A DNA stretch of 63,679 bases, taken from NCBI GenBank assembly GCA_905331295.1, contig CAJNYD010000052.1:62001-125679 (forward strand). Reading direction: 5' to 3'. How positions within the stretch are numbered: position 1 is the stretch's first letter; each line of letters opens with the position of its first letter. Source of the DNA: Rotaria socialis. Lineage: Eukaryota. A program made the translations under genes and the position numbers. Below are positions 600 to 62,081 of this stretch, in pieces. A model generated the notes under the pieces. The model searched no databases. It was given only the letters and a program-made list of their open reading frames with translations, and was not told where the DNA came from.

Positions 600-3500
600 A
601 TTGTACTGAAAACAATACTTATTTTGATTAATTGAAATATTTGTTTTTATATGATAACCAAGAATAGGATCAAGAGAAAAAAGAAAACCTTTTGTTGAAA
701 ATTGGCATTTAGCACCATAATAACAATCTTGACAAACACATGTCGATTTCGTTGGGCATGTTTCATTATTTTGAAAGCATTGTCCATCATTTTCACAATA
801 GTTATGTCCTTGACAATCATAATTCATTGTATGATTAAATGAGAAACAATTGGAAAATCGTTCGAGATCACATATACAAATAAGATCATTATCATAGAAG
901 CACATCATTGTTCTATTTTGTCGACATAAAAGTGGATAATATTTCGTTCGATTCAAATATCCAGAATTGATAATTGTATTATTAAGAAGCGTCGAAATAG
1001 GTAAACAGCGTTGCTGTGATTTTATTTCAGTATGAATATGTTCAGAAGGTATGGATGTTTCTCGAAGTATTCCTAAATAATAAGATCCATTTGGTATTTG
1101 CAAAAGAAGAATATTAAACGGTTGCGAAACATAAAGTGTGAGACCATGTCGATTATAAGGAACTTTTTTCAAAAGTGTTGTACGTTGATGTTCAGCATTT
1201 TTGAAAGCAGTAATAAAATGTACGAACAGTAAAGAGCTTTCTTGTATTCTTGTATCAACTAAATATATGGGTGTGGGGTGTGGGTGTGGGTGTGGGTCCT
1301 TCCTTAACTCACGCACCCACACACCCACACCCCACGCCAAATGAATTGAAGCGTTAAGCTAACATGTTGATTTTGCCATTGGCATTGAGCTCCAAAATAA
1401 TTCGGTGGACAAAGACATACTTTTGTTTCATTCATACCATGTAATACAACAATACCACGATGGGAATAGGAAACAAGAGTAGGATTAATCGTTGGAGTGA
1501 TTTCAGTTTTTGGATTCTGTTTGAAAATAATCGGTATCGAGCGATTATTCATTATTAGTGGGAAATAACCGAATCGGGCGCATGTGAGAAATACACCAGT
1601 AACCATTTTATAACCCATGTTCACGTCAAGATAACATATGGGTTCAATATGCTCGAAAAAGTGAACAGGCGTCGTCAAAGTCTCACCTACTTGATTACAT
1701 TCATGAACGTACAAATCCGACTGTGCTCGTAGCATTGATGTATTGATAGCACTTCGACAGATTTCCTCTAAAATATTACATTTACTCTTGTTTCACGACA
1801 TGTAGTCATTACTGATATCCTTCGTTCCATTATAGAAAATAACTTGACGAGAAGTTGATGGATTGCTGCAATCATCGAGATATTTATCAAATAAATGAGC
1901 ACGAGGAAAACAATACGAGATTTCGAAAGAGAAGTCACCACACACATACTCGTTTGACGAGCATAGACTATTTGGGCAATTTAACTCGTCAATACCATTT
2001 GAACAATGCCAAAATTCGTCACAACGGGTATATGGATTGTTGCATGGCCACAATTCACAATTGGTTTCATCGGTTTCTAGGACGTTCACCGAATAATCTT
2101 TATTATCATTATTACCATTACAGATATCTGGAAATGTTACTAATTTTACTAGGTCAAATGTATATGTATATGCTTCATCCTCTCCTGAAGGGCAATCATT
2201 CATTCCATTACCGGCTACAACAAGTGATAGACATTTATTTGGATCTGATGTGCAAATAAATCGATTTGAATCGTTTAACTGGCATGTATTAAAATCTTCA
2301 TCTTCAAAATAGAAACAATCGGCTACTCCATCTCCAACACGATAATATGGAATACATTTCAAAGATTCATTACAGTGAAAATAAGATGCATTAATACATG
2401 ATTTCTCTACACTTGTCTTCAAACATTTACGACCAAAATTCACGAACGTTGATAGCAATTGATAAAAGTCCATATATTCGACATATTCTATTAGATTAGA
2501 AATATGGCAACGTGTAAGACCATTAACTATATTAATGGAGGTGACCGTAGCTAATAATACAGGACATCATTGTGCATCGAAACAAATAAAATCAGTTGCA
2601 GGACTTGCTTGAAATTCACTTGTCGATCGATTTGTCAAATAAACGAATTGAAAAAATTCAAACATTGTCGGATTTTCAGGTATGACGATCCATTCCATCA
2701 TGCAATGCTGAGATAACGGTTGACAACTTTCATTCCAAACATGATCAATAATCGATTCAAACGTTCCTATGTCTGCAGGACTAGGCTGCCCTAAAATGAA
2801 TAATTTAGTTTTTACAAGTAGAGACTGAGGGACATGTGTATCAAGACTTTCAGTGCGATTGTCTCATATAACTTTATTCTAATACTTGAAAAATTAAGAC
2901 TTTAAATAAGCTTTAAAAACTGAAAATTGGAGATTATTCGGTATATTCTCTTAAGTGATCGATTGAATACAAGAGAACAGTGATTTTCATATACTTATCA
3001 GTTTTATTTTCTTTCTCTAAATATATTCTTACCTGTATTTTGTGTTCGATTGGAGTACAAAGGATGATAAATATTGACCATCACCACATGAGAACGAGAA
3101 AGGGTATCGAGTAGTACGTTCCTGACATTGAAATGTTTGAATATTCGTACACTGGGGATTGATCAACCAACTAAATTGAAAACGCTCCTCTTGCTCATCG
3201 CTACCATCTAGACAATCAATACTTATTCTGCTGGAATACATTGACCACCATAATGACATCGATATTCATGATCGCTGCATTTAGTCATATCTAATTCTCC
3301 ATTCGAAAAGTCAGTTTTCCCATCACAAATTTCTCGCCAATCGAGACACCGAGGCCATAATTCTTGGTTGCAATTATCTAAGAATCGATAGCAAGAACCT
3401 GTAGTAACATTTTTAATGATTTCCGAATAATTGTTAAAAGTAGCTTCAACAATATCACTGAACGATATCGATACACTATGGCCGAATTTATATTGACACA

Positions 3501-3928
3501 TAGGACCAAACCATGGTGATTTACATTGATAAAAAAAGATCTGAACTATCATTATTCATTTCATATTTTTCTGCAACATCAATTGGTGCAAACCATGCGA
3601 GTAATTGTTCACTTGTGACATTTCGTTTTCTCAATTCATCAAAACTTATCCGTTGCGCTATATTCTCATGGTTAAGGTGAGATTCTTGTTCCAATTCTTT
3701 ATCATTATCAGGACATCTACAGTATAGAATTAAATGATAACTACGAATATAACTTCCACCTATTTCTCTGCCACCATCAACTAAATAAGCATATAAACAA
3801 TCGAATGTTAGATAGGACAGTTGACTAATATTAGTATGAAATAATGAATAATCACTATGAATTGAAGTACAAGAGATGAAAGCTAACGATGTACGCAGTA
3901 ACAGCATAACTTTAAAAGTTTGAATCAA
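600..3928 (-). pseudogene. LDL-receptor class A/EGF-repeat receptor-family gene (bdelloid LDLa-EGF-GPCR type), frameshifted and truncated
   Basis: Signal-peptide-like start at 3928. LDLa motifs (CLDWREICDG, DCLDGSDE, CDEFWHCSNGIDE) and EGF motifs (CLCPPNYFGAQCQ, CVCQDCYYGAKCQF) are split over several frames. The gene ends at the inversion junction at ~600, before any complete transmembrane region. Confidence 0.8.
1268..1334. repeat. Head-to-head telomere-like repeats (TGTGGG)n..(CCCACA)n, site A
   Basis: tgggtgtggggtgtgggtgtgggtgtggg, a short spacer, then cacgcacccacacacccacacccac. Confidence 0.9.
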
Positions 3929-5411
3929 TGATTAAATATTTCTCAGTTACAAGATTAAGTTCCTGAGTTTTTTCTCCGTTGTTCTTACTTTCCTGTGTGC
4001 ACAGAACAAATAAATTTCTTCTTGAAAAGGAAGAGAAACATATGAATAAATTAATATTTTCCAGTAACGAACTTAGATAGATGGATCAAGTCACCGGTAA
4101 AATACTACCCCCTGTTATTATTACGAATAACTTACTGCCTACTTGATCTGTGTAGCAAAATGGAAAGTTGGAGAGTGCTGGCTTTATTATTGTGCGTATG
4201 TGAACCTACGGAAATAGCTACTCTTTTTAATGTGAATAGAAAACTATGCGAGTTTCAAGAGCTAAGAAAAACAAATGATTTTTTTGTAGTTAAAACAGAT
4301 TCTCACCTTCTGCTATTGTTAACAACAGAACAAAGTCAACAGTACACCATTATTTGATAAAAATGCTTCGCTTAATTAAAATTAAATTCTTACGAAGAAT
4401 ATATTTTAGTATCCCTTACTCGCACATATCAATACATTCACATTTTATAGACTTTTCATTTGATTTTCGGTGCTCATGTTTCGAAATGGCAGTAAAATAG
4501 TTTTTAAAATAGATCCTAATCTCATGTTTGATAGAATAGGAATGCCGATTCTGAGAGAAACATAGCTGTTCTATTATGACCAGCAAACACCATGAATGCG
4601 AACAAGCACATACCTATTAGGGTTGGCGATTAATAGCTATCAACATAGAAGAATTATTTGCATAAGTCAGAAAAAGTAAAGATCCCTTGTTCAATGTTTA
4701 CAGTTAAAATTTATCACAACAAATAATTAATTTAACTATTGCTACCAAGTCAAATCAGGACAAGATAAGTTTTCCAAACTAAGTGTGACAAACATGAGGT
4801 GCTACGAAATTTCATAAATTATCTCGTGTACTTACGATATAGTTTTTGTTGAATAGATATCACCATTGGTTTTGAAGAAACAACTACAATAATAGATGAT
4901 GGGATTATAATTTATTACTACAGTCATATGAATGCAATTAGGATCGAAGAAAAGATGATTATTCGAAAAAGAGCTAGTTTTCGTAAGATAATTTTATAGA
5001 ATAAATAAGAAATTTAGTAGGATATATATACCTACAAGTTTTATGTTCATATATCTTGACGATGAGGATGATGATGAATTGAATCATCTGAATAGTTATC
5101 GAAACAAAATCACCTATAAATACGCTCACACTCATTATACCGTAATGATAATTTCACACGACACACGGTTAACTGTTGCACATGTACTTTAATGTTAAAG
5201 TTACATCGATATTCTCTAGTTGAATTTCATATTTTTTCAATAAATTCTAAAAAAATTAAAATTTAATCGTCTTAAGGACATAACATGCATCATTGAAAAA
5301 AACCTTTCCCTCGTATATCCTTTATTAAATCTAAGAGCAATTATATTGATAATCTCCAAGTAATAGTTGTTAATCATCAATTAAATGATTAAATAAAACA
5401 AAAGAGAACGT

Positions 5412-8787: not shown

Positions 8788-8852
8788 CATCATTCTTTTT
8801 TCATCCATTTTATTGACTCATATAGGCAATTCTTGCATAAGAATTACAAAGA

Positions 8853-9558: not shown

Positions 9559-9668
9559 CCCATGTCGCACAAACCGATCGAAAACCGTCGGTTAACCGCG
9601 GTCCATTTTTATAAAAATCGGTTAACCGCGGTTAACCGACGGTTTTCGATCGGTTTGTGTGACATGGG
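9559..9668. mobile_element. Palindromic MITE (CCCATG termini), internally deleted relative of 34097-34377
   Basis: cccatgtcgcacaaaccgatcgaaaaccgtcggttaaccgcggt ... accgcggttaaccgacggttttcgatcggtttgtgtgacatggg, flanked by AA/AA. Confidence 0.88.
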
Positions 9669-11762: not shown

Positions 11763-11829
11763 GGGTGTGGGTGTGGTTGAATAAAAAATACAGTCACAGT
11801 CACACCGACACCCACTCACATCCACACCC
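11763..11829. repeat. Head-to-head telomere-like repeats, site B
   Basis: gggtgtgggtgtgg ... cagtcacagtcacaccgacacccactcacatccacaccc. Confidence 0.75.
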
Positions 11830-16344: not shown

Positions 16345-17844
16345 TTACTCTATTACATAGACGTATGTCCAATGAAAACAGTCAACGCTATAGCTGCAAC
16401 GAAGATGGGTATTTATTCCGCTGCTTGTCACATTTATGAAAATCAATTTCAGATATTTTAATTGATATGAACCATTGTATTGATTATTAATCTGATTAAA
16501 ATAGTACGAATTTAGTTGATAAAATTTAATAATGTACATGATACATGCGTGAAAATTATACTAAATTTTTTGTTTCACCTGGATTTTTGTTACTCAATGT
16601 TCCATCGAAATAAGTGTATTTAAAATTATTAAAAGTCATACGGTCGTTTACTTAATAATAACAAACTATTTTATTTTTGCAAAAGGAAAATAATCTTGTA
16701 TCTCTTTAGGATATTGTATTTCGTTGTATAAATTCAGTTGCTTGATTTTGATGCAATTGTTTCTTGTATCTTCTCTTGTAAAGCTATGTGTTACTCTTTG
16801 TAATGATTTATAATCGATATCAAGAGTAATATTATTTTCGAAATATATTTTTGTATTCAATAGAAATTCTTCGATATAATCATCATGAACAGGTCGCATT
16901 GAAAGTCTAGTAAGATAACAATAGTTAACCATTGATAAATTATGATTATCATTCATTGATGCAACAGGTTGCTTTTGATTTTGGGAGTGACGATTATTCA
17001 CCGATAAATTCTCCATAAATGGAAATGATTGAATAATTTGAATAAAAATTTCATGTTCAAATGGGCGTGTATCGCGTAATGATACTACACGAACTTATTG
17101 ATATAATCCGCCTGGAAAATTGTTTGTTATATCTTTGTAATATTGCATCAGGAATGGATATGAATAAGTGTGATACTGACCCCAGTTTTCTTCTAGAAAA
17201 TAATCAATACGAGTTGTTATTTGTGTACATGGAAAATTTCTAAATGCTTGTTGAATATCTTCTTTTAATGGTAAACGTATTAGATTATTAATCGATGCAA
17301 TGGAATGAAGATCAAATGAAAATATGTTTAATTTTGGCATATGATTAAGAATATCTTTCTTCAGATTATTTCCATCAATAAATGTTGCATTAACATGGAT
17401 TGTAAGATGTAAGCCGAGTTTTTCTAAATTCGACATTCGATGAACAAGCGGTGGAATTAATGAATCGCAATCGTACGTTGGCAAAACACACGATAGAACG
17501 AAACACTTGAGATTTGGGATTTCCGCCTAGAAAAGCAAAACATAACTTTAAAATAAAATTTATTTTCTTAGAAATTTTACTTGACTTTTAATAATTGCTT
17601 CTGGAGAACCAAGATTAGTCAAGTGAATATGGAGTGTGTGAAGCTGATTGAAACGACCATCGAGAATAAAAAGGCAGTGATGAAAGCATTGAACGCTGAT
17701 TCTTAATACCAAAAGAGTTGATGAAGAGATTCGGCGAGATGGAATATAAAATAACAATCGAACAGTATGTTCATATGATGACTCATAAAATATTAAATGA
17801 GTTAATTGAATAAACACAGTAAAAATATGATGGCTCATTCTCAA
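16345..17844 (-). pseudogene. 3' portion of a bdelloid-type F-box/LRR gene, lacking its N-terminus
   Basis: Motifs CLFILDGRFNQLHTL, RMSNLEKLGLHL..FIDGNNLKKDILNHMPKL, YSYPF..ITNNFPGG and RPFEHEFFIQIIQSFPFMENL, with internal stops. Confidence 0.75.
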
Positions 17845-27195: not shown

Positions 27196-27472
27196 ATCAA
27201 TTCATTTGATTTTCATAGAAATTTTAGGTAAAATTTGTAAAAAGAATCGATCATGCATGATATTAGAAGAGTATTTATTGATAAATTTATTGGATGGCCA
27301 TTTGAGAAAGTTCAAATGACTTGTAATTAAATGTTGGATCATGTGTAATTTGATTCAATCGTTCATTGGCACCTTGCAGAGAATAAAGTACTTCAATATT
27401 GTTCAGTTTTCTGAAAATAATTAGAAAAATCTCATCGGGTAAATCATTCAATTCAACACATGAAGAGTTCAT
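27196..27472 (-). pseudogene. 5' fragment of an F-box gene, ending at telomere-like repeats
   Basis: MNSSCVELNDLPDEIFLIIFRKLNNIEVLYSL, a frameshift, then ...DRFFLQILPKISMKIK*ID running directly into GGTGTGGGTGTC on the minus strand. Confidence 0.8.
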
Positions 27473-36050: not shown

Positions 36051-36097
36051 ATGAAACATCCCACACCAATCGCTTCACCCACCGGAACCTGGAGGAA

Positions 36098-36357
36098 CTG
36101 GCAGGAAAGATGCCTGAAAGTCCCCGTAATCTGTAGGGGAACACGTGGTGTCGGTGGAACATGGAAACAGTATCCCGGTCGCAAACCTTCCTGATTTTTC
36201 TAGTGAGTTCCGACCAACTTGCGATGCCTTTCGGCAAGTTGCGCCGGAAATCATTGAAAACAATTTGCGAAAGTTGGCGGTCGGAATACTGCTTCCATGT
36301 TCCAGCGATATCCTGTGTTCTCCTACAGAATACGGCGACTTTCAGACATCTTTCCTG
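36098..36357. repeat. Long imperfect inverted repeat (nested MITE-like)
   Basis: aggaaagatgcctgaaagtccccgtaatctgtagg...ggaacatggaaacagtat pairs with atactgcttccatgttcc...cctacagaatacggcgactttcagacatctttcct. Confidence 0.75.
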
Positions 36358-45205: not shown

Positions 45206-48200
45206 TCTTTTACAACATCTTCTAAATATTTCAATAAATTGTCACGAAAATCTTGATTTTGAATGTTTTCTTTCAACTGTGCTGGAGTGTATTCATGCTT
45301 GAGCCAAATAAGGAGATGTAAATGAAGCGATCCTCTGCCTTGACTCTCTACAGTGCCAAAATATGCTTTTGTTGGACCAAGTACACCTCCGAGCACGAGG
45401 CATTTCAAGATACTCTTTATCAAACAGTTGAAAAATTTTGCGGTGGCAACAGGATGTGTTGCGATAATTTGAGCACGTTCATAACTTGTGCGCAATACTT
45501 CTAGCAGAACCCGATCAAGATCTAGATCAATACCTGCAAAATAGAGTGCTACTGGACTATGTATGTCGGCTGGATTGATTGTTACGAAAAGGCTCGGAAG
45601 ACCGAGACTAAAACAAAGCGAGTGAATTTTTGTACGAAGAGCCGATCGTGAATGAGCAGAACCCATAACATGCCCACCAACAACTTTAATGTGCTTCATA
45701 AGCGTATTAATTCTTTCGTCGGAAACCTTTGAATAAGACGCTTTGGATATATTCAACAGAGCTGTTGCTACATCTTCAGAACTTAATGTTTCAAGAAGCT
45801 GTGCGGATTGTTGAAAATATGGTCTTGATGTCATTAGTTGGGCATGGAAGCATGCGGTACGGCGTTGTAAAATATTGAAGAGAACGAATATGAATGAGTA
45901 GTGCTCTTCAAAACGACGATCTCCGTACGAAAGAAGATATCGCACATGCTCACAAAAATTGATTTGAACTGGTCGAGAGCTGTCTTCAAGTGCACCACAT
46001 CCATAAGGAAAAAGCGTGGGAAAGACACCCAATAAAAGATTTGGATTAGAATATTCATTGGCCGGTTTGTTACCACGAGGAATCATGTATACGGGATCTT
46101 GTTCCGCACCTTCATCGGATTGGCTTTCGAGCGTTTTGTCTGACATCCGTACCTTCATTTGTCCTAAAAGGTGCTCAGCAACGTCATCAGACGAAACTGT
46201 AGTACCGTTAACATCTAAAACAGCACTAAAACACAAACAAGGGTACTTGAAAATATTAATATATCCATTTATTTTACCTAGCAGTTATTGGTACTGTTGT
46301 TGTAGTGTTGGATTCATATGCATTGGTCAAAGGATCAGGAATATAACTTGACCTTTCACTCTCAGCCGCTTCCGTATTGTTTGAAATTTCCATTGTTGCC
46401 CACAAGCACTCTGGCACATCATCATCAGGTAATTTATCGATTGTTGACTGATTAATTGTAATATATCGATACAGTGGATTGTTTTGATTAAGCCATTGGA
46501 GTGCATCATAAATTTTCTTTTTTCGAACAGTCAAAATATGTTTTAGTTGGCTTCTCTGTGGCATGCGAGATCCGACAAAAATAATTTTTAGAGAGTCACA
46601 TAAATCATCTAATTCCAATGGTAAAGTAGTAGCTATGTTAATAACATCTTGCGGAAAACTTATGCAGTTTCCTTTTAAAGCTGACTGAGCTGTGCTGGTC
46701 GAATGAAAAGGGGACTGTAATTTCACAATGCAACTGTTGTGTCGGTAAAGAGCAATAAGTCTCTGTTCAGGAATGGTTAGTCCTTGTAGTTGTTTTGGTA
46801 TATCTCCCATCCATAATTTATTGGTAGCTGAAAACTTGGGTATTTTTTCTTTCGTCAATGCTGACCAGCACTCCGTGCAAACGTCACAATGAATCAAGGA
46901 GCGTTTCTTTCTATCAACAGTTTTATATAATCCTGCTTCATAGAAAAACATACCATTTATACAAGTAAATGATTGATTATTCGTTGACGATTGAACATTG
47001 CTGTCTGAAATGAAAAAAATATCTTATCAATGCTGTAAGTTGGCGTCACGAAAAAATTAATCTACGTTTCTCTCGTCTTGATTCGCAGGGAAGTCGATAT
47101 CACCATTGCTATGAAACTTACCGTTTGAATTGAAGCTGTTAATCTCCTGAATTTTTGGAATTATGTTGTGAAGATCGGGATGTATCTTGAGTAATTCAAT
47201 CGATGGAATTTCACTTAAAGGTACATGACGAAGCTCACGCTTATAGCGACGAATATTACAGATGCCACATACACTCTCCGCTAGAGAATCCATGGACATG
47301 TGCTGTATGAAGTTCTTCAAACAGTTAACTTTGCAGTCCATATCAACTGGCTTTGGCCAATCAACGTTGGCATCTTGATTTGGTTTTCTTTTCATTACTG
47401 TTTGCTTCTGCTTGACAGTTTTCTGAAGACGCGTTGTCTTGTAAGCTACAGTTTGTTGTTGCTTGGCTTCTTCTGACACACGGGCAGCTCTTCTGGTGGC
47501 AGTTCTCTCGCGAGCTAGTACTCGTTGTTCTTCAGCTTCTATCGGCGTCGCAGTAGCTCGTTTAGCCATGCTTCTGTCAATGGCAAGTGCCCGTTGTTGT
47601 TCAACCTCTTTTGGTGTTAAGGCGGCTCTTCGTGCTGCATGTATTTCCCGATCAATAGATCGCTGTTGTTCAACTTCTTCTGATGTTAGCAGAGCTCGTC
47701 TAGCTGCACTTCTATCACGGGCAAGAGTGCGTTGTTTTTCGGCTTTCTCCTGCGTTAAGGCAGTTCTTCGTGCTGCACTTCTTTCCCTCGCAAGTGTCCG
47801 TTATCTCTCAGCTTCCTCTGGTGTAGCTGCAGCTCTCTTAGCAGCCATTATTTCACGGGCTTGTATACGTTCGTGTTCAACAATTGTGCTTTCGACGCTG
47901 GCACAAGCCTCTGCTAATTCCAGTCGACGCTTGGTGCGAGGAGTTGTAATTTCGTTGGTTGTCTTGATATCTGTTGATGGCACTTGAAATGATCGATTAT
48001 CATCATCTTCCTGATTAAATTGAGGGATTCCTACTTGAGTCAGCGAGTTATTGTTCGTTGTTGCTTTAGTTTGTGTCTGTAAGTGAAATTGTTTATTTTG
48101 TGTCTAAGGTGTTTTGCTATAAACTAGAACTTGCCGAGCCTGAGTCAGAGATTTTCGGTTGAGCTAGGTGATTTTGACTCTGAGAATTGTCTGATGGAAG

Positions 48201-49044
48201 CAAAAGTGGTACAAAATGATTAGGCGACCAGTTACCAGCATTACTACTACGTGCATCGATGTCGCTTTCGGTATGTGTCCAAAATAGACAAATTGCTTTG
48301 AACATAATGTTGCACTGAGCATGTTCAAAAGTACTACTCATGATGTGTAAATGAGGTCGATAATCAATTATGGGATATATACTTCGTATATTGCATTTGA
48401 GAACATTGCTCAATGCTGCAATTTCATAAAGCTCTGAAAATGCAAAATTGTGAGCAATGTTTTTCATGACTTCATTCAGTGGCCCAACAATATGCATAAA
48501 ACGATTGCTGTAGAAAATTTCATTCTTGACGAGTTCAATTAAAGTTCGTACTAAAAGGAACGCTGTAAAATAATTGAATGTTAACGTTGCCAGTACTTAC
48601 CTCTCAGTTCGCTAGGCGTTGATGCTGTATTTCCACTCAAGCATATGATGGAATTATAGAGGCAATTGCCATCTGCAGCTACCTCGATTGGAATCATATT
48701 TTGAACATCCAAAGATGCTTGTTGAAGATATAATTTAGCATCTTGATCTACTCTATGAATTTTTAGGTCAAAATGAGTGACGGGCGTGAACTGAATCGGT
48801 GTCAAAAGCCACTCCAACTAAATCGTCAGAATAGAATATATAAGTTAGAACATATTGTTAGTAAACTTACGGTCTCAATCTGGTGACAAATAACTTTGAT
48901 TTGATCATAGTAATTACCGACGATGGATGCTTTACCCAGTAATGTTAAAAGAGTCTCGAACATTGTAGATTGGTCTATCGTACGACAGCCTAAACAGCAA
49001 GCTGTGGTTGTCCGTTGTGCACAAAATAGGCATCGATTGTTCAT
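45206..49044 (-). mobile_element. Helitron/Helentron RepHel gene (OTU protease, 23-aa STPR-like repeats, DUF6570-like region, HUH Rep); helicase not visible, runs into gap
   Basis: OTU motifs ADGNCLYNS and NHFVPLL; repeats of the TPEEAERxRTLARERSAARR type; FPTLFPYG, LFVTINPAD and the Rep motif GTVESQGRGSLHLHLLIW. Spliceosomal introns are present, with an in-frame TAA at 47801-47803. Confidence 0.92.
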
Positions 49045-49409
49045 ATTGCTGTGTTATATACTTGATATAAAGCTAATAATATCTTCGATTTTTCGATAAT
49101 TGTATAGTATCGAATTCGAATATAACAGGTTGAATGAGTGAAAAGAGTCTAGAAGGAAATCATAGAAAAAACAGATTTGAAAATATATGATTAAGTAGAT
49201 TTTATTTAAATGGAAGTATATAATTATGGTAATTTGAAATAGTTATTAAAATGATTGTGAATTAGTTTCTAATCTAAGCGGCAAATATTGCACAAACGTA
49301 AAAGCATTCAATAAATTCAAAAAAAAACCATTATATATTGCGATCAGAGTCTGTTGCAATGCATAGCTGTGTGCAGTTTCATAGTATTTTTAACAGGCCA
49401 CATTCAATT

Positions 49410-50548
49410 TTAGTGTTTCGTGATCATGCCTGTCAAATACCACCACTGTCTGCCGTTTCCGTTGTACAAATTGCAATCATTATCGTTACAATCACATATA
49501 AGACTCGAACTAAGAGCTCTTAGCGGTGCTTGAATTTTTTCACAATGATAAGATTCTTCACTTTGCTCTAAAGATAAATTAACAAATATGCGCAAAAGAG
49601 TCAATGACGATTCCAACAGACAGATCCATCGTTGGTTAACGACAAAACCGTCAGAGTCTACGAGGCCACTCAGTTTCAGCTTTGCGAGGCATGGTATTTT
49701 TGCCACTAGTTGAATAATCCAGTTGAATGATACTTCAAGTAATCCAAGGCTGAGAGTGTGAATCATCTGGAAAATGAACGAAACTATTGATTTTTGACAA
49801 CGATCAATCAAACCGATACTGAGTAAACGAATACAGCCAAACGCCGGTAGGGAACTTGACAAGTCATTCCAGTCAACTGTAGAGCCTGAATCTATGATGA
49901 ATTGTTTTATTTCACTTTGTGCTGCGCGTAACGTGGAGACTGGGAAACTCTTTGCTAATTCATCAGTATGAATTTCTAGTCGACGCAATGAGGAAACAGA
50001 TAGAACAGTAGTCAACAGTTCTGGTAGAGATCTAATGGTAGGAGTAATAACAGTAAGTTTGTTCAATTTCGTGTTTGTTTGAGGAATATTTCTAACAATG
50101 TCTGTGACCCATTGAATTACACCAATTAACTTTAACGATCGAAGTTCTATGCAATGTTCGATAATGTTGAGACAAAAAGTGTCGTGCAGTGTAAGGGAAA
50201 TGATACTATTGAGAGGAATATGTTTTGGAAGATCTTTAATATCAACACCGAGCGTCAGTCCTCGTAAAAAGAAACGATTGTTGTCATTAAACAATACTTG
50301 ATCAGCTGCGATTGTGACAGATGCGAACGTAATAAATAAGTCTGTGATTTCAAAATACTCAAATATTTCCCTCCAAATATCACAATACAAATCGTGAATC
50401 GTGCTATATCTTTCTATAAGTAAAAAGAAGGTTATATAACGAAAAATTGTGAAAAATGTTTACCTTCAAATAGTATTTTGACTCCAGGAATCTCACAACT
50501 TCCACTGTATCTATTAACTCGCACGCATTTCGGCTGATAATCATCCAT
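49410..50548 (-). CDS. F-box/LRR-like protein immediately upstream of and co-oriented with RepHel (2 exons)
   Basis: Exon 1 MDDYQPKC..LFE|gtaaac; exon 2 STIHDLYCDIWREIFEYFEITDLF (F-box-like) followed by LRSLKL and LRRLEI leucine-rich repeats. Confidence 0.7.
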
Positions 50549-51392
50549 TTCATTAAATAATAAATATTGAATAGTCTAGTGAAAATAAAGATGACAAGTC
50601 AACAGATTTATCTGAAAACCAATAACATTATTGTTATTTTACAATGGATCAACTATCATGTAACTACAAATACAGATATACTATAAAACACAATATATTT
50701 CAGTTTTTGATAGGTTTTCAAAGTTGACTATCTAATCCCATCAGGATATATACTAACTTGTACGGGCTATACAAATTTATCGTGATGATGTAAAGCTTCT
50801 TTATATCATATTTTTATTTCGATCAGTTCATTTAGCGGCACAGGTTAGTCTATTTTTCTTCGAAATAGAGTGTGACATATGGTAAACTCATTTTCTTAAG
50901 TGTACTTGAGACATGAAAAAGTTAAAATAGATAAAAAGAGCTTATTTAAGTACAACGAAACATGATAATCCATTAAACAGTGGGCAAATCAAATTATGAT
51001 GATGATGATGATAAAAAGAACATTCACTCTGTTCAACATAACTAAAGGATTAATGCACTGTCAATTCATGAGCCAGAATATCGACAATGAGACTACACAT
51101 AGAACATGTTGATAAGTGAAACATTTCGAAAGCCATAGTGAACAGTCTTCGAAACATACATATGGATGCTTCTCCGAAAGGATACATCGGAATGTGAAGT
51201 TGAAGAGTTTGTGAAAGAGTAAATCAATATTGATGTTTCTAAATAATAATCTACAGTTTAAGACAAAAAGCAATCGTATTACATGAGAACAGTAAGTCAC
51301 AATGCATAAAATGAACGTCAATGTTTAATTATATGGTTTTCTAAGAAATAGAACAACTGCAATAACACAATAATGCATTTAAAGGTTGGTCT

Positions 51393-52510
51393 CTATTTTA
51401 TTCTTTGTCTACTTTTTCTCGAATATTGGCAATTTATTGCGGTTGCTGCTGCTGCTGCTTTTTCAAACATCAATGCCATTTCAAGCAATTCCTCATCAGA
51501 TATTTCTGGTATTGCATCGTTGCTCATGTTTGTTGAGACGACCGTGGTAGCTGCGCTTACATATTGGCACTTGTCTTTCGAAGTTTCATGATTTGCCATG
51601 GCCTTTTTTGCTTGGGTTGAAATTTCACCCGAAATACTCCGTTTGATTGTTTCAGTCAATAGTTTAGGCGTTGCCTATGATATCGATAATATAGATTTTT
51701 ATGATAACATAGATTCCTACCTTATGTTGAGAAGATGTCATATTCGAGTCAGTACCGTCGGTAGTGCTAATTGTCGATTCTAACAAATATGAGAAACCTC
51801 AAGATGTAATTAAGACGACCTTGCCTATCTCACTACTCACTTGACGGATGTGACATTTTGTATTGACGAAAAGTATCGAGATGAGTCGAGCAAGGAGTAA
51901 AGGAAATCTGCAATCAAAACGAATTATTTCATAACATTCATCTCATTTGATTTTTTTATGGTTCTGCTACTATTCGCATAAAATATTTCTGAAGCACCCT
52001 TCTGATTGTGATTGGCCCAGAAATTCTATGGAATCAATCATGCATACAATCAAACTGAACGTTGTACTAAATGAATTTCTACGACACAAAACATCTACAG
52101 TCACACAGAAGCACATCAAAAGATTAGTCTTTATTTTATTTATTGTTTCATGTCATCGATAATGATGATAGTTTATTCTTTTTGCTGCTGCTTTTCCAGC
52201 ATCAATGCCATTTCAAGCAATTCCTCATCAGATATTTCTGGTATTGCATCGTTAGTCGTGTTTTTCGAGACGAAGATGGCAGCTGCGCTCACAGATTTCA
52301 TTGGGGATGATGTTGCAGTGTCGCATAGACTCATCTTCTTTGAATTGTCATGTTGAACCATGAACGTTTTCGCTTCCATCTGTATCTCACCAGAAATACT
52401 TCGTTTAATTATTCTAGGCGATAATTCAGGTGTGACCTATGATAAAAACAGCATATATATATCATATGAGAACAAATGCGATTGTCTACCTTATCTTGGG
52501 AAGATGCCAT
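51393..52510 (-). repeat. Two diverged copies of a small ORF ending in NDAIPEISDEELLEMALM(F/L)EK
   Basis: ORFs 51393..51659 and 52173..52379 share the catcaatgccatttcaagcaattcctcatcagatatttctggtattgcatcgtt block and similar upstream sequence. Confidence 0.8.
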
Positions 52511-52859
52511 GGTGTTAGGTCCGTCGCCTTCGTTTATTTCTTTCAATCCTTCCTTTATACAAAAAACAAAAAATACAACTGAATTCAAAAACAAAAAGCA
52601 ACAAAATATGTGCTTTTTCTTTCTCTCTCTCTTCCACCAGTCGGTTCCATCTCATAACTATGATAGAGGGATAAAGATGGCCGTCTTATGTCAGGAGATG
52701 TCTCTACTGACATAACACTTCCCCCCTCCAAAAATAATTACAAAGGAACGATAAAATACGAGATAAACAATATAACAGAAGATTAATACGAAATAAAGCG
52801 TGTGAGTATGTGATGCGAGTAGATGAATTTCACGAAAGAAAAAAAACATTGTATCACGT

Positions 52860-55800
52860 TTAGGATGATGACCGAGAATATACACGTCTGATATTGTTTG
52901 AATGCACTTGAAATTGTTGTAAATGTTCATCTTCAACTATAAATGATACTGGTGAGAGAATTCGAATGATTCGAGCAGGACCAGTGTATCGAGCTTTAAG
53001 TTTATGTCGTCCAACGAAAATTTTCATCCATACAAGGTCACCTAGAACGAAAGTCGGGTGCGACCGATTTTTATCAAAACGAATTTTTGATAGTTCTTGT
53101 TGATGCATAATGTGTTGTTTTGCTTGTTTTAAAGCTGTATTTCTATATTGTATCACTTGGGCCCAATAATCATGTGGTTTACTGAAAACGAATGTAGTTG
53201 CAGGAGGGCTAAATGGGTGACGTTGTCGTCGTCCGAATGCTAATTGATATGGGCTAATTCCAGTTGAGCTATGTATCCCATTATTGTAAGCATAAACGAT
53301 AGATGGTAAAATAGTGTCCCAATTGTTTAGATCAGTGTTGCAATATTTGGCGATTTGTGTGACAAATGTCGAATTCCATGGTTCAGTTTGTTCATTTGTT
53401 TGTGGATGATATGGTGTCGAAAAAATGTGTTTACAACCTATTAAATTTGAAATAGCTTGCAACAGTTCGTTCTTGAAGTGTGTTCCTTGATCAGTAATAA
53501 TTGTCAGGTGAGCCATGAACTAAGATAATTTCTTCCATTAATATACGAGCAGTATCCTGAGCTGTATTTGTAGGTGAGGCTTTAGCAACAACATAACCAG
53601 ATAAGCGATCAGTTATAACTAAGACATATCGATTTCCAGAAAGCGAAGTGGTGGTGGGTCCCCACCAATCCATACCTAGTACTTGAAAAACTTCATTAGG
53701 TGGCTGAATAGGCTGTAAAAATCCTGGAGGTTTATGCCGATCCACATGGAATTGTGAGCATTTATCACATGATTTGATATGAGATGTGATTGTTTCTTTC
53801 ATACGTGGCCAATAATATGTGTTTCGTAACATAGACCATGTACGTCCAGTACCAAAATGACCACTTAATGGATGATCATGATAAGCGGCCATTATTTCTG
53901 GAATTAATTTCGAAGGTGCATAAACAAGTTTAATAGTAGCATCATTGCGATAAGCTAATTTATATAAAATGCCTTGTTGAATAGTAAACGATTCATAACG
54001 ACGATTATTTCGAATTTGCTGAAGTATTTGTTGAATAATTACGTCCTGTGCTTGTTCGGAACGTATACGTGATAAACTAAAATCATGTAATGGAGTAGCC
54101 ATCGGTGGAGAAGAACACCTAGATTGAGATATTGTTGATGTAGATGATGTATTTGCTGAAGATGAACGTGGTTGAGCTTGAAGTTTTGATTGTGCTCTTG
54201 TTGTAACGGCATTAATTTGTGCATTGATACTCGCATTATGAATACAAGTGTGTTTTAAAATAGATGGTTCAGTGTATTGTATACACTGTGGCTTGGGTAC
54301 GTGTTCATCCCAATGTTCAGTACCAATTGGCCGATCAGCATGTGTTACATTTATTGTAGATGGATTAATATTGGGAGATGTTGATGGTGGAAAATGTCGT
54401 GAAATATAATCAGCAGCTGCATTATGTGCACCTGGTCGATGCTTAACGGCAATAATTTGTGGTAAAATATCTTGTAATTTAAAAAGCCAATTCATCACTC
54501 GTTTATTATTGATTTGTTTCTTATGGAAATTTTCAAGTGGTTTATGATCAGTTTCGACAATAAAATCAGAATCACCTATATATGATCGAAGCTCAGATAT
54601 GCACCAAAAAATAGCTAGTGCTTCTTGTTCAATTGTATCATATTTACGTTCAGTATCATCTAAAACACGTGATTTAAAATAATTAATTTTGGTACCACTC
54701 GGTGTATCTTGTCGTAAAATTCCACCTATGCCAATACCCGAGGCATCAGTTGTTAAAACAAATGGAGTTGATGAATCTGGATATTCTAAAAATAAAGGAT
54801 ATGTTGTTAAAATACGTTTAAATTCATCAAATGAATGTTGTTGATCAGGTCCCCATTTAAATTCATGTCGATGATGTTTTGTTTTATTCGTAACTTTGTG
54901 TAATGGTGCAGCTATATGCGCAAAATTAGGAATAAACTTTCGATACCAATTGATTTTTCCTAAAAATTCATTTGCTTCTTTGAGTGTGTGTGGAGCTGGT
55001 AAATCGATAATAGCTTTAATTTTATCACCATTAGGTTTAATTCCTTGTTCATTGATTGTATGACTTAAAAACTCGATTTCTTGAACAGCAACGGAACATT
55101 TATCAGGATTCACTTGGAAGTTGGCTTTAGCTAATATTGATAAAATTTCATTTAAATGTTGCTGATGTTCATTGAGACTACGTGAAAATATTAGGATATC
55201 ATCTAAATAAACCATAACATAATCCCAGCGGCCATAACCAAGAAGATTATGCATAGTTCTTTGAAACGTTGGGGGTCCATTCATGATACCTTGTGGAAGA
55301 ACGTTGAACTCCCATAAACCATCTTGCGTGATAAAAGCTGTTTTTTCTTTTTCTGTTTCGTGTATTGGAAGCTGAAAGTAACCTGATTTAAGATCTAATT
55401 TTGTATAAAAACGATGACCGCCTAATCGATGCAATAATTCTTCAGTTGTTGGTTGAGGAAAACAATCTTTTTTGGTCACCGAATTTAATTTTCTATAATC
55501 CACTAAAAATCTAATACCACCATCCTTTTTCTTGTGAATAATAACTGGAGACGACCAAGGTGAATTTGATGGACGAATTTGATTAGTCTGTGTCATTTTT
55601 TGGATTTCAGCTTGAAGTTCACGTCTTTGTTCGATTGTTCTTGGATATGGTCGTGAACTAATCGGAAGGCTATCACCGGTGTTAATAGTGTGTTGAATAT
55701 GCGTGTTCGCTTGTGTAACTTGCGAAATATCAAAAATTTTCATGTGCTGTTGCAATATTGAACGTAATTTTTGTTTATGTTGAACATTTTTAATATGAGT

Positions 55801-56832
55801 AATTAATTTATCAATTGTATGGGATGTTGCAGAAGGCTTTTGTTCGAGGTCAATTGCATTAAGAATATGACGTTGAGATGATAACGACGAGTATTCGCGA
55901 GATGTATCGGATAATAAACATGAATGCATTTGATACGGTATGTGTGTTATTCTACCTAGAAGAGTATTCATTGGTAATGTATATGTATAATCATGAGGAT
56001 TATATACTTCTAAATATGTAGTATAATTATTTATGTGTAACAACGATGGTGACATGACACTAGATTTTTTTGATTGTATAGCATCGACAGGCGAGAAGTA
56101 GACCGTATCAGCTGATGATAATTCTACTTTGGCTTGAACAGTATATGATTCGCGTGGAGGTATATGAATAACATTAATTGATTTGACATCTAAAGTTAAA
56201 CACTCAATGCTTTTGTGATATGAAATAAATGTACGACCACGTGAAGAACGTATAGACACTTGATTTTTTTCATAATCAATTTTTGCTGCATTTTTTGTAC
56301 ACCAATCACTGCCAAGTATAAAATCTGTATTCATTGTTTTGACGACGAGAACATTTAAAGGTATAAAAACTTTATTAAATTGCAATAATAGTTGAACTTC
56401 ACCCACTATTTTAAGCATAGTTTGACCATCACCTAATTGAGCTATGCAATCACATGATGGGACTACTGAATGATATAATGTGCTCAATGCCCGTTGAGTA
56501 ATAAATGAATGTGTTGCGCCAGTATCAATCATGGCACGTAGACGTGATCCATTGACGAGAGTATTGATAAAAATTAATGACGGGTTGGATTTTTTAATAT
56601 TTTGATTTACGGCATGATGTTGTTCGATGGATTTAACGAGATCTGGTCGAGAGTTGTTAATTGTTGGATATTTTAGCATGTTGTGATTGATATAAGAACG
56701 AGAAAACGGAACGAAGCGATGATATATATTTGGTTTTTGTACAGAATAAGTATTATGTATTGATGAATAAAATACTGATGGTCGCGATGGGTGGGAGTCA
56801 CTACCATCATTTGACCCCCTTAATAGTTTTTT
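52860..56832 (-). CDS. pol: Pol (protease DTG, RT YLDD, RNase H, integrase), with a frameshift lesion near 53505
   Basis: Motifs MIDTGAT, LDLKSGYFQ, YLDDILIF, TDASG, HDHPLSGH..CDKC and TDQGTHF. Integrase is split between ORFs 53491..56679 and 52860..53516. Confidence 0.93.
56786..56832 (-). promoter_or_regulatory. -1 programmed ribosomal frameshift signal (A AAA AAC + predicted H-type pseudoknot)
   Basis: Slippery heptamer in the gag frame, 6-nt spacer, stem 1 GGGGGTCA/TGACTCCC, stem 2 GATGG/CCATC; the -1 frame is open into pol. Confidence 0.85.
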
Positions 56833-57791
56833 GCAGATCTACAATCACGAGCAAAATGACCCACCTTCTGACATAGATAACATCGTAAAGGACGTGATTG
56901 ATACCGTAATGCATTGAACGAAGATTGTGGAACTTGAGGTGGAGAACGTGACGACGATGGATCATGAAATCGATTGTACACTGGGCGCGGCGAATATACG
57001 TTTGCATAATAGCCTTTAGAATACATATTTGAGGAATTTTGGTAGTGAATGGCTCCAGCAGATTGTGGAGATCTATATACTGAGTTGTTTGAGTAATTTG
57101 TGGCTTGTGTATCATTATCATTGGTGTGTTGAGCAGCGGTAGTAACGAGACGATCCAAATTTTCTTCGTGACGTGCTTTGTCTAAAAATGCTGCCGGAGT
57201 TGCTGGAGCTTCACGTAATACGTCTTTCATTAAAGATGATTTTAATCCATGATATAAATGATCGAGTTTGGACGCATCAGTCATATGAGGGTCAACTAAT
57301 TTGCATAATTTCATAATATCTGTATAATATTCGATAACAGCTTCATCATGGCGTTGTTGACGAGTTCTTAAGCGGTTAGACGCTAATTGTTTTGATGATG
57401 GTGATGAAAATGTATGAAGAAATTGAGCTTTAAATCCACTCCAGGATTCGAACATTGTAATATTGTCATTAAACCATTGCTTCGGATGTCCTTCCAAAAA
57501 TGTGAATATTATTTTTAATCCTTGTGGTTCTGTAATATCAGCCATACGAAATGTAGCAGTTAAATCCTTCATCCATTCATCGGCGTCTTGATCTGGTTTA
57601 CCAGAAAATTTAGGTGTTTGTTCCAAAGTTTTACTTAAAAGTGTTGCGACGGTTTTCTCTGCCATGATTGATTCTGCTGGACGATAAACTATTGGAGCTA
57701 CTGTTGTACGATCAGCAAAAGTAATATCAATATCGGATAATCGTTGAAATTCAGCTTCAAGGAGTCGTTTTGCACCTTGTCGTTTTAACAC
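56820..57791 (-). CDS. gag: Gag with CCHC zinc knuckle
   Basis: Motifs PKFSGKPDQDADEW, Q..EAVIEYY and CYLCQKVGHFARDC. Confidence 0.93.
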   Translation of the reverse strand: MLKRQGAKRLLEAEFQRLSDIDITFADRTTVAPIVYRPAESIMAEKTVATLLSKTLEQTPKFSGKPDQDADEWMKDLTATFRMADITEPQGLKIIFTFLEGHPKQWFNDNITMFESWSGFKAQFLHTFSSPSSKQLASNRLRTRQQRHDEAVIEYYTDIMKLCKLVDPHMTDASKLDHLYHGLKSSLMKDVLREAPATPAAFLDKARHEENLDRLVTTAAQHTNDNDTQATNYSNNSVYRSPQSAGAIHYQNSSNMYSKGYYANVYSPRPVYNRFHDPSSSRSPPQVPQSSFNALRYQSRPLRCYLCQKVGHFARDCRSAKNY

Positions 57792-58451
57792 ACACTAATT
57801 ATATGAATAATAATCAACCCCGGCTTGTGCACCAAATTGTTAGGTCCGTCGCCTTCGTTTATTTCTTTCAATCCTTCCTTTATACAAAAAACAAAAAACA
57901 CAACTAAATTCAAAAACAAAAAGCAACAAAATATGTGCTTTTTCTTTCTCTCTCTCTTCCACCAGTCGGTTCTATCTCATAACTATGATAGAGGGATAAA
58001 GATGGCCGTCTTATGTCAGGAGATGTCTCTACTGACATAACAAAAATGACATCTTTTCTCAAAATCTATCTATCAATGGATTCAGTAAAAAGTTTTACAT
58101 GAATAGTCTCTATAAGTACCTAGACTAAAATTAATGTTTAGACAACGAAGTTTTCATAGCATGGTTTATTCAATTTTGAAAATTTCTAGGTCTTGGTCTT
58201 GAACTACTGAAAGAGAAAATATGTATGTTTTCTCCAAATGTTGTCATTCAATTACGAAATACGTTAGTTTCACATCAAGATCGCAATAAAATGCCTGATT
58301 TGACACTTGAGTGGTTATTACGACAACCGGTTTTTGCACCATATAGAGTAAGCATATTATTAAACTATTAGTCTGTTTTATTTCTTAGTATATTCTACTT
58401 AGGATAAAATAAAAATGAATAATAAACGACAACAAGATTATGATGGTCAAT

Positions 58452-58517
58452 TGAGTTATGAATATATTAAAGTACAATCTGCAGCAGTATCAGATCCAAT
58501 TCATAGGTAACAAACTT
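58452..58517 (+). repeat. 66 bp NOL9 exon/intron segment repeated at 62525-62590 (after gap)
   Basis: tgagttatgaatatattaaa(g/a)tacaatctgcagcagtatcagatccaattcataggtaacaaactt, one mismatch. Confidence 0.93.
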
Positions 58518-58548
58518 GAGTGTGTGGGTGTGGGTGTGGGTGAGGTGG
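58518..58548 (+). repeat. Telomere-like tract, site E
   Basis: gagtgtgtgggtgtgggtgtgggtgaggtgg. Confidence 0.88.
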
Positions 58549-59510
58549 CCACGGTGTTCTCAAAACAGGCAACGTTACTAAAATAATTAGAAAGTCTTCT
58601 TCGTAAGTTCTAAACTACTTTTCGTTTATTATGCATGCCTAATTTATTTGCCCGAATCACTATTTTCCTCTAATATTAACATGATAATGCAATTAGTGCT
58701 AGTTTCAGCTTTACACTACAAAGTTCGGGCTGCTTTAAAAAAAACTTTTGTTCTTCAATTACAAAATTTTCGACCAATTTTCGTAGACCCGTCTTTAACC
58801 TCTGAATACAAGCTTGAATGTTAAAGTTCGATGACTCATAGTTTGTCCACCATGAAATTGTTATAAAGTCAATAATAAAAGTTTGATAAAGATTTCAATA
58901 ATACATATTTTGTGAAAATAAAACAAATTTTATTTTCACTTCACTAATAAATATTTTTATGTTAACAATAAATAATTTCAAAATAACTCAAATATTTTTT
59001 TACATTTGAATCATGAATATTTTACGAAAATAACAAATTTTCATTTAAATAACACAAATTTTCTTTGCATTTAAATCATAAAATTTGTAAAAATAATACG
59101 AATATTTTTTTTCACTCTACTAATAAATTATTTTCTTTTACTACCAAATATTTTTCATTTTACTAATAAATATTCTCAAAAAAAGCAAATTTGTTTTTCA
59201 TATCAATAATAAATATTTGTAAAAATAATGCAAATTTTATTTTTGATTGTAATAATAAATATTTTCAAAAACGACATAATTTATTTTTCACTTTAATAAT
59301 TAATATTTTTTCCGAAAAAAAACAAATTCTTTTATTTTCATTCAAAAAATAAATAAAAGAAGAAGAAGAGAAGAAACATATGCCGTAATTTTATATTTTA
59401 GCTTTTTTCTTTTCTTTGAAGCAAAAGAGTAAAATAAAATTTCTTTTTTTTGCTCATTTATTTCAAAGTATAGAAAAAGAAACGAACAAAGAAAAAACAA
59501 TTCACAAGTC

Positions 59511-60419
59511 TTACTCGATAGAAAATCGTTGAACACGATTATTAATCTCATCGACGACATAGAGATTACCATGTCGATCGAAAGACAAACCCCAGGGGTA
59601 GTTGAACTGATTTGCTCCTGCTCCATAACCATTTCCACCCACAACTACAGTGCCTTGTTTTTTGTCTCCTTGAGTCCAACGCATTACACGATTATTGAAC
59701 GAGTCTGCTATATAGAGTGTACCCAACGTATCAACGAAGATTCCTTGAGGATAATACAATTGTGTCAGAGCATTCCCTTCACCTTGTCCTCCAGCGACCA
59801 CAGTACCTTCTTTTGCACCTTTATTCCATTTCATTACACGATGATTGTTGTCGTCTGATACGTAGACACTCTGTTGTCGATCGACAAAGAGATATTTCGG
59901 CACATTGAGTTGATTAAGACCATCACCTTTACCATTACCACCAGCTACGAGAGTGCCATTCTTCTCACCCATTTGATATCGTCTTACTTCATCTTTTACG
60001 TTATCAGAAACGTAGAGATGTCTCTGCTCATCCATAGCTAATCCCCAACAGGCGATGTTGTCCATGAGTATTTCACCTTGTGTTGTACCACTACGACGAG
60101 ACCATCGTACAACTCGGCTGCCTTCACAAATAATGAGATTATCCGTCTCTTTGTCAATTAATACATCAGTTGGACGATTCAATTGATGTAATCCATTTCC
60201 TTCGCCATTACCACCAGCAACAACTTGTCCATTCGTTGTATCACCGTTCTTCCATTGCATGATACGATGATTCAAGTTGTCAGCAATAACCACTGTTTGA
60301 TCATCATCAACGAAGAGACCATGAGGCCAGTTGAGTTGATTAGTGGCACCCCCATACCCGCTACCTCCAGCAATAGTCACTCCGTTCTGTGCCCATTTAG
60401 CATTAGCAGGAATATTAAC
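59511..60419 (-). CDS. NHL-repeat six-bladed propeller, terminal exon; upstream exon not found
   Basis: NIPANAKWAQNGVTIAGG, then repeated VVAGGNG.G....QLN.P.GLFVD and NHRVMKW; splice acceptor at ~60420. Confidence 0.88.
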   Translation of the reverse strand, partial: VNIPANAKWAQNGVTIAGGSGYGGATNQLNWPHGLFVDDDQTVVIADNLNHRIMQWKNGDTTNGQVVAGGNGEGNGLHQLNRPTDVLIDKETDNLIICEGSRVVRWSRRSGTTQGEILMDNIACWGLAMDEQRHLYVSDNVKDEVRRYQMGEKNGTLVAGGNGKGDGLNQLNVPKYLFVDRQQSVYVSDDNNHRVMKWNKGAKEGTVVAGGQGEGNALTQLYYPQGIFVDTLGTLYIADSFNNRVMRWTQGDKKQGTVVVGGNGYGAGANQFNYPWGLSFDRHGNLYVVDEINNRVQRFSIE

Positions 60420-61299
60420 TAGAAGAGAAAGAGTAAGAATAAAAGGAGATATTTCTCTTTCTCGAGTATAGCTAGTATATTAAATAATTTCGAAAGTATC
60501 GAGTAAAATTCTTTGAATAGATCATTCTTTTTTCTAGAAATTCCTCAGAATAAGTTTTTTCTATATACTGGAAGATTATTCTATAGAAACAATATAGCAT
60601 ATCGTTCTCTCTGAAGCGTATTTAAATTCTATATTTTTGTAGAAAATCAAACTTAAATAATTACGTCTTGCTAACCCAAGCAGACATTAAAAAGCCATCC
60701 AATCGGAGTTTCAAGTGATGAACTCTATTTATTTTTTCTTTTGAGAAAATTATATAAGAGTGATGTTTGCAAATTAGAACATATCTAATATTAAAAAGCG
60801 ATCAAAATGAAGAACGAATATTGCATTATGAACGTATGTCAAAAATATTAAAATTATTTGTTAAATGAACGTGTCAATTTTGTATCTGCAGACACATAAT
60901 ATACACTGTAATTTGTCTTTTTTTAAATTCTATAAATTGGAAAATTCACAACAAATTATTTGAAAATGAGAAAAGGGGATTTTATTTCCTCCAAGATTGT
61001 CGAAACAAAAACCGTCAATTAGTCATTGTTCTGTCTTAGCATATAAGTCAGCAGGTATAATGTTAAACCTTCATTATATTTTCTTCAACTCGCTATTAGG
61101 GGTTGTTAAATCTTTCTTTTTCCATTTTATTTTTTGGCTATCATTTAAGCGATCAGTAGAATAAACGAATGATCAGTACGTTATTTGTGTGGTCAGTTAT
61201 TAGTATACTTCGATTTATTGATATATTATTTAATAAATGTGGAAACTTCGGATTTCATCCGAGAGTTATGTGTACTACAAAAAGTGCATGGGACATATG

Positions 61300-61745
61300 A
61301 GCCATTCTTGAATGTTTGAACACCAAAATTATCATGAGAAACTAGGCAATTTGATTTCTGGATACAGTTTTTTGTTCATTTTGAGACGTTTTTCAGGCGA
61401 TTTTTTGTTAGAAAGCTACGATTTAGTTCAAAACTAATATCAGATTCGGAATCAGCGTTAAAAGCTGAGTCGATTTATATCTGTTGTGAATAATTCTGAG
61501 AAAGATTTATTTTTTGAAAAAAATTCCCTGTACTCCTCCTCAGGGATGGTCTAGTCAAAAATGACAATTTTTTCGATGACTCAATCATTTCTTGAGGGAT
61601 TCTTCTCATCTTCGAACTCGACCGAGATATTGATGAGACAATTCTGTGCACAAAATTTCAGTTCAATCGAATGTAATTGTGAAGAGTTATCGAATAAACG
61701 GCCGGACACACTGACCGATTTTAGTAGTGTACTCACTTTTTGAGT
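61300..61745. repeat. Probable non-autonomous DNA transposon remnant
   Basis: Contains tcagattcggaatcagcg and aaatttcagttcaatcg motifs of the kind seen in TIR-element subtermini; boundaries not resolved. Confidence 0.35.
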
Positions 61746-62040
61746 ACACAAAAGTCAGTAAATTAGATTAAAGGATCAGTATAAAAATTGAAATGTGTTA
61801 TAAAGTGATTTACTTTTTTTTCATGTTTGTTCTTTTGGTCTCTATATATCGTACAGCTGATATAAGTACAACATATATAAATGTACTCGTAAGCTCCTTT
61901 CGTTCTCATTCAGCTTAGTCTCAACAAATAAAAAAGATGGAAGTTGTACAAGTTGCTCAATATGAAAGTGATATATCAGAAAAAGAGGTTCTGGAAGGAA
62001 ATGATGGAATAAATGGAAATCAAAGAATTCAAAAAAATGA

Positions 62041-62081
62041 TGTGGGGTAGTGTAGATGAGCAGAAGAATCACACCCACACC
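62041..62081. repeat. Short head-to-head telomere-like repeats, site F
   Basis: tgtggggtagtgtagatgag ... cacacccacacc. Confidence 0.6.

Follow-up and report, generated by a model that had tools for sequence, protein, structure and literature searches.

Head-to-head telomeric repeat tracts at gene breakpoints in a Rotaria socialis contig: candidate scars of repeat addition to broken ends before joining

The DNA described here is a 63,679-nucleotide stretch (the window) of contig CAJNYD010000052.1 from the Rotaria socialis assembly GCA_905331295.1, covering positions 62,001 to 125,679 of the forward strand. It carries short tracts of the hexamer TGTGGG, most of them followed by an inverted CCCACA tract, at points where genes are broken. 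Proteins encoded in the window match R. socialis records at 93–99%, and judged by these matches the source animal belongs to R. socialis or to a form very close to it. This species is described as an obligately aquatic, non-desiccating bdelloid rotifer (PMC7943196), and TGTGGG is given as the bdelloid telomere repeat (PMC7943196, PMC8494291). The window contains many broken genes, miniature inverted-repeat transposable elements (MITEs), a Helitron-like block, and a long terminal repeat (LTR) element. Being so rich in broken genes and mobile elements, it may be unrepresentative of the genome, and the tract, polarity, and decay counts below cover this one repeat-rich window.

Six TGTGGG tracts, numbered here as sites 1 to 6 from left to right, were listed in a first-pass annotation. 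The hexamer is present at all six coordinates, but two of the tracts are weak (32915 and 62041), and the one at 62041 is native coding DNA. Tracts were called with a phase-aware score, in which 10 or more is strong and 8 is a looser threshold, with 25 dinucleotide shuffles as the null. There are four strong G-tracts (1268, 11763, 26818, and 58522) and five strong C-tracts (1314, 11801, 27185, 33001, and 62070), where the shuffles give a mean of 0.12 for each and a maximum of 1. Tract sites occur about once per 10–13 kb, with arms of 1–5 repeat units (10–40 nt), and the head-to-head arrangement is the commonest form.

A G-type motif starts 29–367 bp to the left of each strong C-tract (5/5), and the window has no strong C-then-G pair. 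By itself, this polarity of 5 vs 0 gives p = 0.06 (two-sided). At score 8, nine G-tracts and ten C-tracts are found, which form four G-then-C pairs and one C-then-G pair within 500 bp; four or more G-then-C pairs have p = 0.003 by position permutation. The lone C-then-G pair (36060/36393) consists of chance-level 8-mers. Adjoining it is an 83-bp tandem repeat with 4.9 copies (35631–36032). Five pairs with G left and C right had been proposed; their polarity stands, but only three have two strong arms. One has a weak left arm (the 32915 G-arm, with a perfect match only 8 nt long) and one is without an added left arm (the 62041 motif, a single hexamer). The remaining tract, at 58518, has no C-arm. 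Among non-bdelloid loci with a TGTGGG repeat, the G-then-C and C-then-G counts are 2 vs 1 of 125 in viral sequences and 6 vs 14 of 106 in metagenomes, without the polarity of the window. The metagenome control used AT-flanked tracts (118 loci, 106 distinct), and none of its loci looks bdelloid, with no blastn match to the window and one tblastx match, from the LTR element.

The repeats decay inward, as first described. The mean number of matches per hexamer, from outer to inner, is 5.7, 5.2, 4.6, 4.3, and 3.1, against a background of 2.3. The inward match exceeds the outward match in 8 of 11 arms, with one lower and two tied (one-sided Wilcoxon p = 0.02); these 11 include the left arm of site 6, later judged native. 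The interiors of the five pairs (the fillers) differ from one another, and the only arm variants common between pairs are one of 14 nt and one of 8–9 nt. A local template for the fillers was rejected because nearby matches do not exceed 10–12-mers, and a fold-back origin was rejected because the flanks are not inverted copies of each other. The scars fold into hairpins (z from −1.5 to −3.9) because their arms are inverted, so no function is ascribed to the folding. Rfam gave no structured RNA above the family threshold in the window, with only four weak miRNA matches.

The tract positions coincide exactly with homology breakpoints. Three tract sites had been placed at gene breakpoints, and four were found (1268, 27195, 58518, and 62052). 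The absence of target duplications, also proposed, holds insofar as none is demonstrated at the five pairs, but one of 3–4 bp is possible at 32915. Abutting direct repeats at the five pairs are 0, 0, 4, 4, and 5 nt, and about 20% of random junction pairs in 2000 trials have a direct repeat of at least 4 nt.

The site 1 scar (1269–1335) is composed of a G-arm (1269–1297), a 16-nt filler, and a C-arm (1314–1335), and stands in place of about 670 bp of coding sequence. It breaks an LDL-receptor-A/EGF-repeat gene on the minus strand (599–3907), which was located by tblastn of predicted proteins P0001–P0007, shows the Pfam domains EGF and Ldl_recept_a on P0007, and is also frameshifted. The missing segment is 223 residues (669 nt) relative to P0007 and 671 nt relative to an intact contig (run X5, record 17). 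Other predicted proteins place it at 148–209 residues, the upper value being that of P0037. This intact R. socialis protein matches both flanks in order, at 146/150 and 91/100 residues, which places the flanks in one gene or in very close paralogs. In intact relatives the protein continues differently at each of the two junctions, which makes both arms non-native additions.

Eighteen R. socialis proteins were compared at site 1, one of which may be the window's own source record. Five show the native continuation, two (P0001 and P0050) read into the scar, eight have the flanks without the middle, and three are partial. Scarred and intact versions thus occur in other records, and the scar is not confined to a single assembly. 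The contig comparison near sites 1 and 2 is swamped by repeats and skips 1265–1338, so it gives no base-level junction for either site. Going by the codon of the homolog, the left junction has one T in register. The scar has no flanking direct repeat. The deletion of about 670 bp, the 16-nt filler, and the base in register are hallmarks of end joining, and site 1 is a deletion rejoined through two arms rather than an insertion.

Site 5 is a one-armed G-tract (58518–58549, plus strand) located 12 nt into an intron of the NOL9/Grc3 polynucleotide kinase gene. The 5’ part of this gene (42661–58504, plus strand) is cut at site 5 and has the truncated product P0060. Reading ends at 58504 and resumes at 62630, within uninterrupted 3’ exons (62525–63177, plus strand) that follow an assembly gap and represent the empty version of site 5. 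Self-BLAST showed that 58452–58517 is duplicated at 62525–62590, with the duplicate ending exactly at the G-arm. In contigs of two of three runs (X4 and X5), 58517 is joined directly to 62588, while those of the third run break there. Of nine NOL9 proteins, six are intact, and one stops at the intron that carries the scar. From the empty allele and the intact proteins, the left arm at 58518 was added at a cut and is polymorphic.

A high-copy sequence (58550–58890, plus strand), with contig depth in the thousands, lies directly behind the G-arm. The same high-copy end also follows a G-tract in a contig (X5, record 17) from another locus. The sequence starts with a heptamer that we take to resemble Transib/RAG-type transposon ends, with no partner end in the window, where its first 23 nt also lack an inverted partner. 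Because of the gap and an uneven X1 contig depth at site 5 (76 on the left, 21–26 on the right), two readings of 58518–62424 both stand. It may be an insertion with a target duplication of at least 66 bp, or a separate allele set in tandem by the assembler.

Site 6 (62053–62081) contains a 17-nt filler and a C-arm (62070–62081). It cuts the 5’ end of a multi-copy open reading frame (ORF) of the P0033 family (61937–62052, plus strand), whose native codons N-G-V-G-V-V look like a G-tract at 62041. P0033, an intact relative, has the same residues there, and two variants seen in contigs (62040 A>G and one extra A after 62046) fit the intact frame, so this tract is native DNA that resembles the repeat by chance. 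In X4 and X5 contigs, this filler and C-arm also follow different G-arms, which match the repeat better. Joints of 58545 to 62050, with a short side of 20 letters, and of 58539 to 62057 occur in these runs. At site 6, an older scar or a repeated end that was already capped may have been reused, which fits better than a new event at two ends.

Three further head-to-head pairs are found at sites 2, 3, and 4. The site 2 scar (11763–11829) has a G-arm, a filler, and a long degenerate C-arm, with repeated DNA and high contig depth on both sides. The site 3 scar has its G-arm at 26818–26837 and its C-arm at 27185–27195, and its filler is interrupted by a palindromic MITE-like element (26849–27161) with inverted ends and an internal palindrome, likely a later insertion. 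At the C-arm of site 3 a minus-strand F-box-like gene is cut off, and only its first ~90 codons remain (27196–27472; Pfam PF12937, E = 7e-5). Of 76 longer relatives, 75 match this segment, and none continues on the minus strand to the left of the G-arm. The site 4 scar (32915–33016) has a weak G-arm, a filler, and a degenerate C-arm. Its filler is G-rich and then C-rich, and a small hairpin (32967–32990) marks the change.

Other features lie between the sites. A C-terminal part of an F-box-family gene without its N-terminus (16672–17859) is on the same strand as the N-terminal part at 27196–27472, in order and 9.3 kb away. Together they may make up a single gene. No telomere tract is present at the junction near 17860. 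Palindromic MITE-like elements occur at 9559–9668, 34095–34379, 36081–36378, and 26849–27161, the first two being related. A single-exon glycoside hydrolase family 43 gene is present at 30602–31675, and its horizontal acquisition is possible. Upstream of site 5, a 13.6-kb block of transposon sequence splits NOL9 between residues ~380 and ~390; it contains Helitron-like ORFs with DUF6570, an unannotated 349-aa ORF, and an LTR retrotransposon whose LTRs (52513–52717 and 57838–58042) are 98.5% identical. Between sites 5 and 6 is an NHL-repeat gene (59511–60479) with very high summed contig depth, which differs several-fold from run to run and is not equal to copy number. A search for loci based on NHL gave none in viral contigs and five in contigs titled as bacterial genomes. 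A high-copy element is also present at 61232–61750; in contigs it has a wide variety of left flanks, and joints of its empty site occur as well.

The reading we prefer, with a probability of roughly 0.6, is that repeats were added to broken 3’ ends, that error-prone G-rich extension followed, and that the ends were then joined. A telomere-repeat-adding reverse transcriptase would place one to five TGTGGG units on a broken 3’ end; telomerase or an Athena-type enzyme are candidates. An error-prone polymerase, possibly polymerase theta or lambda, would then run on and make the G-rich filler, and end joining would seal two such extended ends. Since each extended 3’ end gains G-strand repeats, the order at the junction is G left and C right. 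Extension of one end only would give a one-armed junction, as at 58518. A telomere-like tip annealing to an older scar and copying the sequence behind it would give a shared-arm junction, as at 62041. Short contig joints suggest such re-copying as a second step. We infer that the repeats were synthesized de novo rather than copied, and likewise the order of the steps and the identity of the enzymes. Adineta vaga is reported to have POLQ and expanded end-joining genes (PMC6264785), and Penelope-like elements without an endonuclease are described as able to prime at breaks (PMC3846280).

The earlier proposal that both ends of a break are capped and then ligated is borne out at site 1, which fits its prediction, but not at 58518, which is one-armed, or at 62041, where the left arm is native. 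A two-ended deletion is proven at one site and a one-ended addition at one, and one site was misread. What the scars show of lost coding DNA is about 670 bp at 1268 and the truncation of genes at four sites.

The alternative with the strongest claim is that the arms were copied from existing telomeric or interstitial repeats, by templated insertion or break-induced replication, and that scars spread in segmental duplications. As the origin of the scars it is rather unlikely, but it is the main rival, and at sites 5 and 6 it probably took place as a second step. The recurrence of the site 6 filler and C-arm behind different G-arms, with native telomere-like DNA on the left, speaks for copying, as do the second locus sharing the G-tract and following sequence of site 5, and the 14-nt variant of sites 2 and 4. 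Telomere capture through microhomology is also the reading preferred for tumours (10.1101/157560). Copying alone leaves unexplained the 3’-extension orientation of both site 1 arms and the inward decay, and the contig joints depend on 20-letter sides. An origin from mobile-element ends, either a MITE with telomere-like terminal repeats or the capped ends of Athena/Terminon retroelements, is quite improbable. High-copy DNA adjoins sites 2, 5, and 6, Terminons are described as attaching through and being capped by telomeric repeats (PMC6431247), and 4–5-nt direct repeats are present at three of the five pairs. These repeats (0–5 nt overall) are nevertheless near chance level, site 1 is a deletion without the target-site duplication of a clean insertion, and the interiors of the five pairs are unrelated, although the site 6 filler does recur at other loci in contigs. 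Terminon arrays are head-to-tail and would leave a single tract orientation. No hammerhead-plus-repeat motif was found by Rfam or by a simple core pattern, and the only reverse transcriptase recognised among the window ORFs is that of the LTR element.

The window could also be a chain of mini-chromosome fragments that were capped at both ends and later fused end to end, which is very improbable. Such fusion predicts the same G-then-C order and the joining of unrelated genes seen at sites 3, 5, and 6, and broken fragments are reported to persist over generations in A. vaga (PMC13564844). Site 1, however, rejoins one gene in order, and its arms, like the others, have 1–5 units where fused functional telomeres are described as having hundreds of bp (PMC11293586). 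Chance microsatellites or assembly artefacts are hardly credible as an explanation. Of the six tracts first listed, two are weak, one of them being native coding DNA, and among the matches listed no contig piece is shown spanning a scar. Against this, strong tracts are far above the shuffle level and lie exactly at homology breakpoints, and two separate protein records read through a scar.

Several points weigh against repeat addition followed by joining. Site 5 is one-armed and abuts a high-copy end, and the native left arm and recurring right part of site 6 are not predicted by independent capping. Evidence from an empty allele is limited to sites 1 and 5, and sites 2, 3, and 4 are without one, so that site 1 is the single verified two-ended event. 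The nearby break at 599 is free of repeats. The 14-nt variant common to the arms of sites 2 and 4, a length of at least 14 being reached in 13 of 400 simulations, is a weak hint of a shared donor. Perfect and then degenerate repeats are unlike the output of a processive telomerase alone. One survey did not find TERT in A. vaga (PMC5405514).

Two wider claims were not upheld. The material does not support a routine repair route. It is one repeat-rich window, and a second break, 670 bp from site 1, has no telomere repeats; at this control junction (590–610, from self-BLAST and the junction sequence), an inverted paralog piece (1–599) is joined to the LDL-receptor-A/EGF gene with about 2 nt in common. 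No end-joining footprints are reported in more than 1 Mb of gene-rich A. vaga DNA (PMC2861651). A link to desiccation is not supported either, R. socialis being an obligately aquatic species (PMC7943196).

The scars bear on the resealing of broken chromosomes in bdelloids and on the turnover of their large gene families. A scar that is short, has a polarity, and can be counted would provide a genome-wide record of past breaks and losses, usable across assemblies of desiccating and aquatic species, and a readout for finding the enzyme behind bdelloid telomere repeats. It would show that in one animal group repeat addition precedes joining rather than ending the chromosome. A broader idea, possible but doubtful, is that in bdelloid germ-line end joining a repeat-making reverse transcriptase, possibly non-canonical, normally primes both ends. 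The scars would then act as landing pads for copying multi-copy gene blocks (NHL, F-box, and receptor families) and drive their turnover in an asexual animal, even without desiccation.

The individual steps are known from other systems; their frequency, and a germ-line form with two arms and inward decay, are undescribed in the literature searched. No description of recurrent short head-to-head scars in bdelloids was found in that literature, whose scope excluded most subscription papers, the primary Athena/Terminon papers, and figure S25 of PMC13564844. Vertebrate short interstitial telomeric sequences (ITS) are described as inserted at double-strand breaks (PMC7215372, PMC8537989). They share with the scars the short telomere runs at breaks, together with deletion, filler sequence, and one or two bases in register. 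The repeat is likewise absent from the empty allele or ortholog, here at sites 1 and 5 and not at the left arm of site 6. Head-to-head order, as in TERC-ITS, accounts for 3/41 vertebrate loci, and two-sided addition involving a second telomerase was proposed for these (PMC8537989), whereas in the window it is the commonest form and is accompanied by inward decay. No fragment of telomerase RNA is shown at the window sites. Tumours are reported to have telomere insertions that are 98% one-sided and 2% two-sided (10.1101/157560), and neotelomere formation followed by fusion (PMC11293586). Both involve telomere repeats at rearrangement breakpoints with microhomology; the tumour events are somatic and span hundreds of bases, whereas those described here are heritable, polymorphic in the species, and 10–40 nt per arm.

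The human 2q13 fusion ITS has the same G-then-C head-to-head order (PMC7215372), but it is a single fusion of true chromosome ends, whereas site 1 is a local deletion within a gene. Fusion ITS are recognised by long arrays and the subtelomeres of two chromosomes; the arms here are 1–5 units, and the flanks of site 1 belong to one gene. Athena/Terminon caps have the same repeat, prime at telomeres or breaks, and capture host genes (PMC6431247, PMC3846280). They differ in forming head-to-tail arrays that carry a reverse transcriptase along with hammerhead motifs; none of these features was seen at the window sites. The closest parallel in a bdelloid comes from A. vaga, in which telomeric repeats are reported at deletion breakpoints during break-induced homologous extension repair (PMC13564844). 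There too, TGTGGG is added at broken ends, and scars are expected by the authors (PMC13564844). The A. vaga neotelomeres are capped ends that persist, whereas in the non-desiccating R. socialis two capped ends would have been joined.

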